DNA of 64,000 nt from a bacterium (GTDB lineage Bacteria > SAR324 > NAC60-12). The notes below the pieces were generated by a model, which was not told the origin of the DNA, did not search any database, and worked only from the letters and a program-made list of their open reading frames with translations. Each line of letters starts with the position of its first letter. Positions within the stretch are counted from its first letter, which is position 1. This document shows positions 25,994-29,729 of this stretch, piece by piece. The DNA is taken from NCBI GenBank assembly GCA_965205865.1, contig CBDBHR010000029.1:224001-288000 (forward strand), in the 5' to 3' direction. A program made the translations under genes and the position numbers.

Positions 25994-26705
25994 TCAGGCT
26001 AACACAGTTTGGGCTTCACACAAGCGAGTTGCCAGATTGATCCCCTGGGGGCAAGCCGTTGAGGCTTGTGCCAAATCCATTTGATCGAAGCGGCGGGATT
26101 CTGGGGGAATACTCCGGAACAACTCACGTGCCTGTTCTTTTTTCTCATAGCATTCATAGTACATGAGAAAACGCAGGGAATCGGCAATGGCTGCTTGGTT
26201 TCCCACAACCGTCTCGCAGAACTGTGAGCAACCGTTGCAGGCATGTCCCGCAGTCAGTGCCGCTAATTGATTCAATTGATGCCATTCGTTGGCAGAGAGC
26301 AGTTTTTCGGTTTTGGCGGCAGCAATGTTTTCCCGTACCACTCGGATGCTATCCATTTCTGAGACGATTGCATCGACGCGCTCGTCTGCCCAAACAGATT
26401 TCAGTTTTGCTTGTCCCAGTGTGAATTCCTCTGAACGAAACTGCGCCACGGATTCCAGATTACTCGGAACTGAAGCATTGGTTTTCATGGCAATCAATCC
26501 GATCCCTGCTTTTTTACAGGCATCCATTGCGCGATTCAATTCCAAGTCGCCATAGCGCCGAAAATTATAACGGAAGAGGATGGCATCAATGCCTCCTACT
26601 CGTGCGGCTTTGGTCAAAAGTTCCACGACGTTGCCATTGTGGCAGGAAAATCCGAAAAATCTGGTTTTTCCGGACTGTCTCAATTTGTCCCCAAGGCGCA
26701 GAGCA
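25994..26705 (-). pseudogene. Aldo/keto reductase with C-terminal Fe-S motif, 5'-truncated
   Basis: GKTRFFGFSCH, GIGLIAMK, CNGCSQFC...CPQ. Sequence upstream of LRLGDKL is not AKR-like and the N-terminal catalytic region is missing. Confidence 0.7.
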
Positions 26706-26936
26706 GGATGATTCCGGAAATATTTTCCACGAAGGGAATATGTTTGCGTAAGACTCTTCTTTTTTTGGAAGTGAAAACACGATCTTGGGCCATTTTTATC
26801 ACTCGTAGAACTATGGTGCTCGTCGAAACCAAGCCTTTCCCGGCGTGTCAACCGGCTAAGCCAGCGTCTCCAACTTTAACCTATGTACTGCTTGGGAACA
26901 AACCTTAAATAACCTGTAATTATTCCAATGGTGTGA

Positions 26937-27019
26937 GCAAAATTGGGGGACACATGTACACCGCTGCGCATCCCAACTCTACTGTTTTATGCCTGCTGTT
27001 ACGTGTCCCCTAATTTTGC
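26937..27019. repeat. Inverted repeat GCAAAATTGGGGGACAC...GTGTCCCCTAATTTTGC
   Basis: 17-bp arms with one mismatch around a 49-bp spacer. Confidence 0.7.
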
Positions 27020-27205
27020 GTATCCATACTTCTAACTTATTTAAATTTCATTCCTTAATTAAACCATGGATCAAATACCTTCTCCGGAACGCAGTAGCGG
27101 AATTCTCTTCAACGTCTATCCGGTACTGGCAACATACTTGGCAATTCATAAAATCATCCAATCAGCAAAAAAGGGTTGGACAATCCGGAAAATCAAGACT
27201 GGAAT

Positions 27206-27559
<354 letters not shown>

Positions 27560-27586
27560 TCAACAGGTTCAGGATGGATATTTTTT

Positions 27587-28519
27587 ATGGATCAAAGGGA
27601 ACTGTCACGAATCATAAGTCAATATGGTATCTACTTGCAAGTTGAAAAAGGATTTCAACCTGGAACCTATCATGTGTACCTGAGCAACGTACGATTCTTT
27701 TTCACATTTTGTTGCAAGTGTCACGACAAGTTATTTTTATCGGATGACTGGAGACTGTCGGATATTGGGGTGCGGGAACTGGAATTTTTTTTTCGAGAAC
27801 ATTTGCGAGTACGCCACTGGAAGGTCAACACGGTGATTTCCTATCTCACCAGCATTCGTTCATTTTTTCGTTTTTTGCAGGAAAACTCATACCTGAAAAA
27901 AAACCCGATTCGCAATTACACGATGCAAGAGAATGCGCGGGAGTTGGTGATTGCCAATATCACGGAATCAGAAATCCGGCAACTGTTCCAAGAGCCACCA
28001 GAACCAAGTTTTGAAGGTTATCGCAATCGTCTGATGCTGGAACTGTTTTACGGACTGGGTATCACGCCAAGCAAACAAATCCGCATCGTCCAGGTCCGGT
28101 TGGATGAAACGAGACAAACAGTGCGGATCACCTCAGGTCAGCAAACGCGGATGTTGCCGATTGCCAAACCGGCTATGGAAGTCTTGAAGCAGTATCAGGT
28201 AGCGCGCCAAGTAATCATTGACCACAGTGGACAGCCAAGCTCATCTTTTTTAATCAACGAATCCGGAAAGAAGCTGACACGTAAGAGAATGATTGAAGCG
28301 TTTAAAAAGGAATTGGCAAGAATTGGCTTGGTGGGTGAACATGCGCAAATTTTGCGAAATCTGTCCACCAAACATTTTGCGGAACATGGCGCTGATGTGC
28401 GCTCTCTGCAAACCCAAAGGGATATGCAGTCTTTTCACAGGCTGGATCTTTTTAAAGATGAATCCTTCGAAACCATGCTGATCCAATTCAAAAAAATGCA
28501 CCTGCGGGAATCATCCTAG
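27587..28519 (+). CDS. XerC/XerD-like tyrosine recombinase homolog with degenerate active site
   Basis: N-terminal SAM-like domain (YLQVEKG...SIRSFFRFL...NP), RNRLMLELFYGLG, GADVRSLQ, C-terminal HLRE. Start ATG 27587. Confidence 0.85.
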   Translation: MDQRELSRIISQYGIYLQVEKGFQPGTYHVYLSNVRFFFTFCCKCHDKLFLSDDWRLSDIGVRELEFFFREHLRVRHWKVNTVISYLTSIRSFFRFLQENSYLKKNPIRNYTMQENARELVIANITESEIRQLFQEPPEPSFEGYRNRLMLELFYGLGITPSKQIRIVQVRLDETRQTVRITSGQQTRMLPIAKPAMEVLKQYQVARQVIIDHSGQPSSSFLINESGKKLTRKRMIEAFKKELARIGLVGEHAQILRNLSTKHFAEHGADVRSLQTQRDMQSFHRLDLFKDESFETMLIQFKKMHLRESS

Positions 28520-28622
28520 CTCATGATCTTCCTTCTCCGAAGCCTGGTCCTCCATGGAAGCCGCCCGTTTTGTTGAATTTCTTTTAGAAGTCCCCTTACG
28601 CAACCACAAACAATTAACATCC

Positions 28623-29729
28623 TTAATAACATCCCATCATAGTTTCTTCCGCCAACATATCAACGATAGACTCCAAACTACCCGTTTCTTCGAATTTACG
28701 AAGTTGGCGGTCTGCGCTGCTACCTTCTTGGAGGATGGTGCGAATGTATTCTATTTCCTGGCGTGTCCCTAATTCATCGACCACATCGTCAATCAATTCC
28801 AGCAATTCTTCCATCAAAAATCGCAGTGGAACTTCTTTCTCCTTACCAAAATCGATTAATTTTGCATCCAAACCGTCTCTGAGGGCTCTCCATTTGTTTT
28901 CTGCAATGAGACTGGGACGATAAAGCCGCCAAGTTTGATTCTTTTCGCGCAACTGGATCAATTTTGCAACCAAGGTTTGAATCAAAGCTGCGATGGCAAT
29001 TACTTCATCGATTTTGGTGGTGCAGTCACAGACGCGAAATTCGAGGGTTGGAAAGTTAGGGTGTGGACGGATGTCCCACCAGATTTTTGTAGGATCATCA
29101 ATGCAATTGGTTTTGATCAAGGTGTCGATGTGTTTTTCAAAACCTTGATTGGAATCGAAATACTCCGGAAGGCCAGTACGGGGCAAGTCCTCAAAAATAA
29201 CGGTTCGATAGGATTTCAAACCAGTGTTTTGACCCAGCCAAAATGGAGAGGATGTGGAAAGTGCGAAGATATGAGGCAGGGTATAGCACGCTTGGTTCAT
29301 GATATCGATCCGTAAGTCGGGGTCGGGAATTCCGATATGTACGTGCATGCCGAAAATCAGCAATTGCCGACCGAGGATCTGAAAGTCAGCCATCAATCCC
29401 TGATAGCGTTTTTTTTCGGTGATCATCTGGTCTTGCCAGCGGGAAAATGGATGGGTGCCGGCGGCGACAATCTTGCGTCCGTTCTTGTTGGCCGTTTCAC
29501 AAACGATGCTACGTAGCCGGGTGACGTCCTGACGCGCTTCCTTGATGTTGCGGCAAATATTCGTGCACATCTCCACCTGGGACTGGAGCGCCTCGGGTTT
29601 GACCTGGTCCCGGAAAATAAATGTCCCTTTGTCCAGGATTTCAGAAATATAGGAAGTCAATTCCCGTGTTTCCGGGTCGATGATTTGATATTCTTCTTCA
29701 ATTCCAATAGTCAAGTCTTTGATATCCAT
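28623..29729 (-). CDS. Carboxylate-amine ligase (YbdK/GCS2 family)
   Basis: TIGIEEEY, AAGTHPFS, FGMHVHIG, SSPFW, WWDIRP, EFRVCD, ENKWRA. Confidence 0.92.
   Translation of the reverse strand: MDIKDLTIGIEEEYQIIDPETRELTSYISEILDKGTFIFRDQVKPEALQSQVEMCTNICRNIKEARQDVTRLRSIVCETANKNGRKIVAAGTHPFSRWQDQMITEKKRYQGLMADFQILGRQLLIFGMHVHIGIPDPDLRIDIMNQACYTLPHIFALSTSSPFWLGQNTGLKSYRTVIFEDLPRTGLPEYFDSNQGFEKHIDTLIKTNCIDDPTKIWWDIRPHPNFPTLEFRVCDCTTKIDEVIAIAALIQTLVAKLIQLREKNQTWRLYRPSLIAENKWRALRDGLDAKLIDFGKEKEVPLRFLMEELLELIDDVVDELGTRQEIEYIRTILQEGSSADRQLRKFEETGSLESIVDMLAEETMMGCY

Follow-up and report, generated by a model that had tools for sequence, protein, structure and literature searches.

A Xer-like protein without the catalytic tyrosine, encoded head-to-head with glnB in SAR324 bacteria

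We examined a 64,000-nucleotide stretch of bacterial DNA (hereafter the window; contig CBDBHR010000029.1 of assembly GCA_965205865.1, positions 224,001 to 288,000 of the forward strand) and, within it, a gene for a XerC/XerD-like protein of 310 residues that stands head-to-head with glnB, the gene for a PII signal protein. The names on public records of close relatives assign the organism to the SAR324 cluster. An earlier reading of this DNA, made without database searches and called here the sequence-only reading, had described the gene as an intact but apparently catalytically dead recombinase gene starting 42 base pairs (bp) from the start of glnB. The open reading frame (ORF) indeed runs to its stop codon without an internal stop, and glnB lies where and in the orientation claimed (Table 1). 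A longer frame opens at an ATG at position 27419 and would encode 366 residues, with its additional 5' part antisense to glnB; position 27587 was taken as the start because orthologs begin at the same MDQ/MDK methionine and because the longer frame overlaps glnB.

Fold and active site of the Xer-like protein

The protein has the fold of the tyrosine recombinases and phage integrases, arranged in the order of domains typical of Xer proteins. The Pfam model PF00589 scores 42.4 bits (cut-off 27.1), and N-terminal SAM-like core-binding domains are present as well (PF13495, 27.7 bits against a cut-off of 27). The best NCBIfam models are those for XerD (TIGR02225, 110.6 bits, cut-off 329.6) and XerC (TIGR02224, 99.2 bits, cut-off 335.15); with scores of about one-third of the cut-offs, the protein misses both equivalog thresholds, and the XerD cut-off of TIGR02225 is reached in none of the 88 genomes of the phylum. 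From 12 family sequences AlphaFold2 gave a model with a mean predicted local distance difference test score of 77.6 and with weak regions at the linker (residues 115–123) and at residues 264–282. Compared with the PDB by Foldseek, the model matches Escherichia coli XerD best (PDB: 1a0p; E = 1.8e-8), followed by an integron integrase, XerA and Cre, and all of the top 10 hits are tyrosine recombinases. Whole-chain template modelling scores are low (0.40–0.45), as expected for two domains set at a different angle.

Enzymes of this fold carry the active-site motif R-K-H-R-H/W-Y, with the tyrosine as nucleophile (described in PMC5357621), and the 310-residue protein does not. In a MAFFT alignment with five canonical Xers, and again when HMMER is used to align E. 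coli XerD (PDB: 1a0p) with the family profile, ArgI is replaced by T160, the beta-hairpin lysine by Q186, HisII by Q254, HisIII by M280 and the tyrosine by F289, and of the six positions only ArgII is kept (R257). These are the losses listed in the sequence-only reading, whose quoted motifs are likewise all present (GITPSK, TSGQQTR, AQILRN, QRDM, RLDLFK, SIRSFF, RNRLMLELFY, GADVR and HLR). The last tyrosine of the protein is Y203, and 12 of 14 orthologs have no tyrosine downstream of ArgII, so that there is no conserved substitute nucleophile. Cre activity above 5% has a strict requirement for just two residues, the tyrosine and the lysine (according to the available text of PMC2943603). Judged by the aligned residues, with the nucleophile absent in 14/14 sequences and no tyrosine past ArgII in 12, catalysis by the SAR324 proteins is excluded.

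Much of the remaining scaffold is kept. Residues invariant across 19 family members include R148, E152, Y155, R257, H263, G268, D270, H305 and R307, and the proteins are basic, with a median isoelectric point of 9.4 (11 family members) compared with 9.85 for 29 canonical Xers. The N-terminal domain also contains an insertion, with family-conserved W55, R63 and E66, which canonical Xers do not have.

Table 1. Features of the glnB/Xer-like locus, and the tyrosine-bearing Xer of the same genome. Single coordinate ranges are positions in the window.
Feature	Position	Strand	Evidence
Gene for Xer-fold protein without catalytic tyrosine, 310 residues	27587..28519	+	ORF, translation, Pfam, NCBIfam, AlphaFold2/Foldseek
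glnB, PII signal protein, 112 residues, canonical T-loop with Y51	27206..27544	-	PF00543, 113.7 bits
Spacer between the two start codons, 42 bp	27545..27586		Sequence
Promoter-like site within glnB, facing the Xer-like gene, TCCACA-18-TATAAT	27384..27413	+	Consensus match only, 10/12 positions
Promoter-like site within the Xer-like gene, facing glnB, TTGCAA-18-TATGAT	27611..27640	-	Consensus match only, 9/12 positions
Tyrosine-bearing XerD-like Xer, 302 residues	G000:C4:55549-56454 (locus L001:1429-2337)	-	Orthologs L032-L061, L080-L082

Conservation, ancestry and gene order

A word-index search returned 12 relatives at 33–81% identity before scores fell to those of ordinary Xers, and a scan of one genome per species gave 14 loci; orthologs within the SAR324 order are 31–81% identical. 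All relatives come from metagenome-assembled genomes (MAGs) or metagenomes, presence counts rest on incomplete genomes, and families and orders are designated by anonymous f and g codes. Residues were counted in 14 sequences, namely the window protein and those from 13 loci; one locus (L017) was left out, its copy being split in two ORFs. At the nucleophile position these sequences have phenylalanine (6) or leucine (8) and never tyrosine. HisIII is replaced by M, V, S or L in all 14 and ArgII is kept in all 14, and the other positions vary: ArgI has become T, P or S in 13 and is still arginine in one, HisII is Q, T or N in 12 and histidine in two, and the beta-hairpin lysine persists in 7/14. 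The losses in the sequence-only reading therefore hold for the window protein, and for the tyrosine in all 14 sequences, but those of Lys, HisII and ArgI are not family-wide.

The gene is not decaying, and purifying selection acts on both domains. The ratio of nonsynonymous to synonymous substitution rates (dN/dS; Nei-Gojobori, unsaturated pairs) is 0.075–0.26 overall, which is not near 1, with ranges of 0.05–0.30 for the N-terminal and 0.08–0.34 for the C-terminal domain. An alignment of 19 members, some as little as 30% identical, has 49 invariant columns, and the frame is unbroken in the window gene and at 13 of the 14 loci. Given the conserved Xer fold, the missing nucleophile and this selection, 'domesticated pseudo-recombinase', the term used in the sequence-only reading, is a fair description. 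In the split copy (L017:6001-6803) the gene is divided into ORFs of 109 and 154 residues with glnB intact alongside, and it may be a broken gene or an assembly error. When the 88 genomes of the phylum were searched, a strong match (E<=1e-28) was obtained in 44 of the 64 genomes of the order (28/45 in family f1 and 16/19 in family f2) and in none of the 24 genomes of the other families; six matches were flagged with one stop in the aligned range.

Mapping the window's neighbouring proteins onto the relatives by tblastn placed glnB head-to-head with the Xer-like gene in 14/14 SAR324 loci, with start-to-start spacers of 19–83 bp; one of these (L015) preserves only the first 20 glnB residues before the contig ends. 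No other neighbour is constant among the 14. The pairing also extends to a deeper branch of the family. A 19-member profile run against 1.84 billion representative proteins gave 78 matches at E<=1e-30; past the SAR324 clade these include 'intermediate' proteins, about 15 in number and lacking the tyrosine, and an 'RY group' of 12. The few RY members with names on record come from MAGs listed as 'Deltaproteobacteria bacterium' or 'bacterium' and are annotated as 'N-terminal SAM-like domain-containing protein', 'site-specific integrase' or 'XerC'. The 12 have R (6), K (5) or P (1) at ArgI, keep ArgII in 10/12 and the tyrosine (within 'DRY') in 9/12, and have no Lys, HisII or HisIII; in both of the RY proteins that were scanned, the catalytic domain now escapes detection by Pfam. 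When metagenomes were scanned with the RY alignment, 18 loci were obtained. In 11 of them glnB lies divergently upstream at a distance of 139–330 bp, and these 11 are all of those with enough upstream DNA. Six of the other seven end inside the gene or at most 190 bp upstream of it, and the seventh (L079; 25% identity, unmatched by the dead protein) probably encodes a Xer of the ordinary kind. Since L070 and L071 are almost the same, as are L064 and L072, about 9 of the 11 are independent, and the pairing counts cover the SAR324 and metagenome loci, with the 15 intermediate tree proteins outside them. Protein identity across the glnB-paired lineages is only 25–28%. Where the DNA reaches far enough, in L069 and L070, glnB is followed by glnA, and in L069 smc follows glnA. 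The link to glnB, which the sequence-only reading had noticed at one locus, is thus far stronger than that reading could know.

Of the three PII genes in the genome, one precedes ptsP, another precedes glnD, and the remaining one is the partner of the Xer-like gene. The paired SAR324 glnB shows 76–80% identity with the glnB of the deeper branch, but no more than 69% and 61% with the two paralogs in its own genome, from which we take the pairing to predate the loss of the tyrosine. Two genomes, G048 and G060, yielded no Xer-like gene, and a search of them with the window glnB recovered no PII other than the ptsP-linked type; by this search, the paired glnB and the Xer-like gene are missing together. 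The further PII paralogs (L019 on G000:C30 and L020 on G000:C11) have fixed partners of their own, a GAF-PEP-utilising ptsP-like gene and glnD.

In a maximum-likelihood tree of 80 proteins, the 38 family rows fall on one side of a branch with 100/100 support, apart from the canonical Xers and from the genome's own Xer; in a quick tree of the same rows the latter groups with XerD-like proteins (Shimodaira–Hasegawa-like approximate likelihood ratio test 95). The window gene both belongs to this clade and has the head-to-head glnB. On the evidence of the tree, the Xer-like protein is from an old glnB-linked lineage and is not a recently disabled XerC or XerD, and an origin as a disabled copy of the genome's own XerC/XerD has to be given up.

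Four integrase-fold genes are present in the genome: those for a 302-residue XerD-like protein, a 392-residue integrase, a fragment-sized integrase of 185 residues and the dead protein. The XerD-like protein, which scores 248.8 bits on the XerD model and 218.8 bits on the XerC model, is matched in 58 of the 64 genomes of the order and is single-copy in 56 of these. Its active site is unusual in its own right: across 30 orthologs (with one HisII position masked) ArgI is replaced by Lys, HisII by Arg and HisIII by Tyr, most carry a 'KRER' hairpin, and the catalytic tyrosine is kept in 30/30. The canonical Arg-His-Arg-His-Tyr is found in the Xers of a different family of the phylum, one of three of which has arginine at the hairpin lysine. 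A count of active Xer genes and dif sites, suggested in the sequence-only reading, gave one tyrosine-bearing XerD-like gene and no dif site above controls: searches for a classical dif pattern in five genomes and for a palindromic XerD-arm pattern in 64 returned no more hits than reversed patterns. Cumulative GC skew on the large contigs (the genome is in 30 contigs) was too weak to place the terminus, and k-mers common to the surroundings of the order's Xer gene contained nothing interpretable.

Readings of function

We tentatively favour the reading that the Xer-like protein is a non-cutting, site-specific DNA-binding and DNA-bending protein acting on the shared glnB (glnB-glnA) control region. 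DNA binding without chemistry is proposed because of the fold, the basic charge and the constraint on both domains, and action on the glnB control region because the divergent glnB is the single invariant genomic feature; from fold, charge and gene order together we infer the binding itself, where its target lies and what it does to transcription. The SAM-like domain at the N-terminus and the former catalytic domain would clamp a specific DNA site in the way that Xer and Cre do, and two or four copies of the protein may bridge sites. Binding in or next to the shared control region would then set the transcription of glnB (in relatives, of glnB-glnA) and of the Xer-like gene itself. Divergent gene pairs kept across many genomes, in which one member encodes a DNA-binding protein, often consist of a regulator and its target.

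The 42-bp spacer is too short for two promoters, and so each gene's promoter must lie inside the other gene. A promoter consensus scan of the region returned 6 sites compared with 3.2 ± 2.2 in shuffled sequences, a weak signal barely above background. Metatranscriptome contigs from two studies, derived from strains 90–99% alike, cover glnB at a depth of 4–20, and one RNA-library contig spans positions 27203–27618, that is glnB, the spacer and the first 32 bases of the Xer-like gene; being contigs, these data carry no strand, transcript ends or expression level, may include DNA carry-over, and prove nothing through the gene parts that they leave uncovered.

Several observations weigh against a regulator acting at the glnB control region. 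With SAR324 spacers of only 19–83 bp, an operator would have to overlap coding DNA. The intergenic regions have no inverted repeat or invertible segment in common and, ribosome-binding leaders excepted, no shared 10-mer above shuffled controls, and no sigma-54 promoter motif was found in the glnB/Xer-like control regions. Pieces of the Xer-like gene appear among the RNA contigs at a depth of only 2–4, and in three of four runs, where glnB reaches 10–20. The gene was not found in 20 of the 64 genomes of the order, some of them 93–100% complete, so that it is either dispensable or was missed by the search; moreover, two genomes (G002 and G006) have the paired-type glnB-glnA operon without a Xer-like gene upstream, and glnB can therefore do without it. 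Finally, the conserved gene order would look the same if the protein bound PII, or if the two genes were simply co-regulated, as it would if the protein regulated glnB.

Individual lineages do have repeats in the glnB/Xer-like intergenic region, which are candidate operators, none of them common to lineages: three to four tandem 19-bp units (L076:1803-1869), two copies of GGATTGATTCA 35 bp apart (L075:2885-2930), and a 27-nucleotide repeat 140 bp apart (L070:2053-2219).

Binding to the PII protein is itself a possible, though unlikely, function. GlnB would bind the Xer-like protein, and the levels of 2-oxoglutarate and ATP/ADP would control DNA binding by the latter, giving nitrogen status an output on the DNA. 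PII-PipX-NtcA and GlnK-TnrA are analogous arrangements. The conserved head-to-head order counts for this reading as it does for the favoured one, the paired glnB forms a distinct ortholog group across both branches, set apart from the ptsP- and glnD-paired paralogs, and the N-domain insertion with W55, R63 and E66 could provide a new interface. However, nothing sets the paired PII apart, its T-loop being ordinary, and a divergent, non-operonic layout is less usual for the genes of two subunits than for those of a regulator and its target.

We are equally doubtful that the protein is a non-catalytic factor in chromosome maintenance, for instance as the silent partner, at dif, of the only Xer of the order that has a tyrosine. 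XerC/XerD systems work at a dif site near the terminus, two Xers together with FtsK, and most bacteria possess both proteins. Genomes of this order hold one tyrosine-bearing XerD-like recombinase, and this genome has the dead protein besides. XerD is a sequence-specific unloader of SMC (PMC12322038, in the text available), xerD adjoins scpA/scpB in Bacilli (PMC8136486, likewise), and smc follows glnB-glnA in one deeper-branch locus. Against this, the family is a separate old clade and no derivative of the order's Xer, its only conserved neighbour is glnB and not a segregation gene (smc is on another contig in this genome), and the pattern scans of 5 and 64 genomes found no dif-like site. The order's Xer also occurs, with the same unusual active site, in three genomes in which the dead protein was not detected (G005, G006 and G048). 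This weakens the suggestion in the sequence-only reading of a non-catalytic partner of an active Xer and, together with the tree, makes an obligate heterodimer of the two proteins less likely.

A bolder proposal, which we regard as speculative and improbable, would join regulation to PII binding. An undescribed old Xer-derived family would be the DNA-level output of PII signalling, with the protein binding GlnB and clamping or bridging DNA at glnB-glnA, and possibly at other loci, according to 2-oxoglutarate and ATP; the branch that keeps Arg-Arg-Tyr would then mark a transition from a recombinase, perhaps a switch of the glnBA promoter, to a pure DNA-binding factor.

It is very improbable that the SAR324 protein is still an enzyme, acting through other residues or through a partner's tyrosine in trans as in Flp. 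ArgII is invariant, half of the sequences keep the beta-hairpin lysine, and the deeper branch keeps Arg-Arg-Tyr, with the tyrosine in 9/12 and R or K at ArgI in 11/12; but 12/14 orthologs have no tyrosine past ArgII, the tyrosine is strictly required in Cre (PMC2943603, in the text available), and the variable replacement of ArgI (T/P/S), HisII (Q/H/T/N) and HisIII (M/V/S/L) is not the pattern of a rebuilt site. A decaying remnant without function is scarcely credible, despite the absence of the gene from 20/64 genomes, the split copy and the six matches flagged with a stop, given the intact frames, the low dN/dS, the invariant columns and a pairing that spans two deep branches.

Known systems and neighbouring features

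The regulator reading has its closest analogue in logic, by comparison of the published description with our protein, in TnsF of Tn6022, which differs in architecture and setting. The available text of PMC10293859 describes TnsF as an inactivated tyrosine recombinase kept as a non-cutting selector of DNA targets. Both would be recombinase-derived proteins that have lost catalysis and are kept for recognising and bending a specific site, a property that is reported for TnsF and proposed for the window protein. TnsF has a catalytically active relative (Tsy TnsF), is about 500 residues long, with N-terminal zinc fingers, tandem core-binding domains and no catalytic-tyrosine pocket, is transposon-borne, and targets comM (PMC10293859, in the same text), whereas the window protein has a plain Xer architecture and is chromosomal and glnB-linked. 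A second partial likeness is to XerD of Bacillus subtilis, a Xer with a role beyond recombination while bound at specific sites (PMC12322038, in the text available); B. subtilis XerD is a complete recombinase, however, and the SMC link is limited here to one deeper-branch locus. The ALOG domain of plant developmental regulators is a reused DNA-binding part of XerC/D-like recombinases (PMC3537659, in the text available), but it consists of the N-terminal domain alone and is eukaryotic, whereas the window protein keeps both domains, both under selection. With E. coli XerD and XerC themselves the window protein has in common the two-domain fold, the length and the scaffold motifs, and it differs from them in the catalytic residues, with Phe or Leu at the nucleophile position in the family, in its separate clade, in the N-domain insertion and in the glnB pairing.

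The short 'XerD' of streptococci and lactococci (NF002685) is a Xer-like protein that reportedly also lacks catalytic residues and is dispensable for XerS/difSL recombination. Membership of the window protein in that family was rejected (23.4 bits against a cut-off of 178, 310 residues against a 245-position model, and another taxon). A search of the ESM Atlas returned only unnamed or integrase-like clusters, and a literature search, the coverage of which left out most subscription journals and supplements, found nothing on a glnB-linked Xer-like protein or on SAR324 Xer proteins. Domesticated tyrosine recombinases without catalysis have been described before, but apparently no chromosomal family locked to glnB.

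As a rule, annotation of tyrosine recombinases goes by their fold alone, and public records label this family 'tyrosine-type recombinase/integrase', 'XerC' or 'N-terminal SAM-like domain protein', although its SAR324 members cannot recombine DNA. Counting 'Xer genes' to deduce chromosome-dimer resolution in such genomes may mislead. The unbroken pairing with glnB suggests that PII nitrogen signalling is connected, in a way not recognised so far, to a DNA-binding protein derived from a recombinase. If the connection is real, it would lengthen the short list of domesticated tyrosine recombinases by a natural case on a chromosome, and would offer studies of PII a new candidate regulator or target in SAR324, an abundant uncultured group of the ocean.

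Within the window, the Xer-like gene has housekeeping genes around it (ilvD, a GCS2 ligase and an enoyl-CoA hydratase in the Pfam scan), as the sequence-only reading had stated. Rfam and tRNA scans of positions 26500–28900 found no tRNA, and their sole match, isrK, is sub-threshold (19.8 bits against a gathering score of 50). In 12 of the 14 SAR324 loci (within L007-L018) a convergent ORF of 201–232 residues (about 218) lies directly 3' of the Xer-like gene, and in 3/3 scanned it encodes a 3'-5' exonuclease (PF01612); it is absent from the window and its two closest relatives, and a homolog is found on another contig of this genome. Two deeper-branch loci have a gene for a class-V aminotransferase after the Xer-like gene and in the same orientation (L062:1566-2798 and L070:3184-4335).

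Two observations concern other tyrosine recombinases. Some single polypeptides of 534–870 residues (P0062, P0063, P0081 and about 30 others) contain two tandem complete tyrosine-recombinase units, with two PF00589 stretches that total 273–287 bits in the three scanned, and these may be fused Xer pairs. PDB chain 9i5v_14 (401 residues) is listed as 'Ribosome-associated translation inhibitor RaiA', yet its residues 8–300 align as a canonical tyrosine recombinase (LRH, LLGH, Y); the molecule name looks misassigned in the copy that was searched.

The sequence-only reading had also remarked on dead genes nearby, and an adjacent aldo-keto-reductase-like ORF (25994-26851, minus strand, 285 residues; 18 bits in Pfam, below the cut-off) fits this remark. 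It covers only residues 162–409 of a 409-residue counterpart in a genome of the same genus and appears to be 5'-truncated beside a repeat element. This repeat of about 165 bp, with inverted ends (window 26890-27060), lies between the 3' end of glnB and the truncated gene. More than 60 copies at 82–98% identity are spread across the genome's contigs. Its depth in the RNA-library contigs is very high, and its flanks there are many and varied; it resembles a miniature inverted-repeat element.

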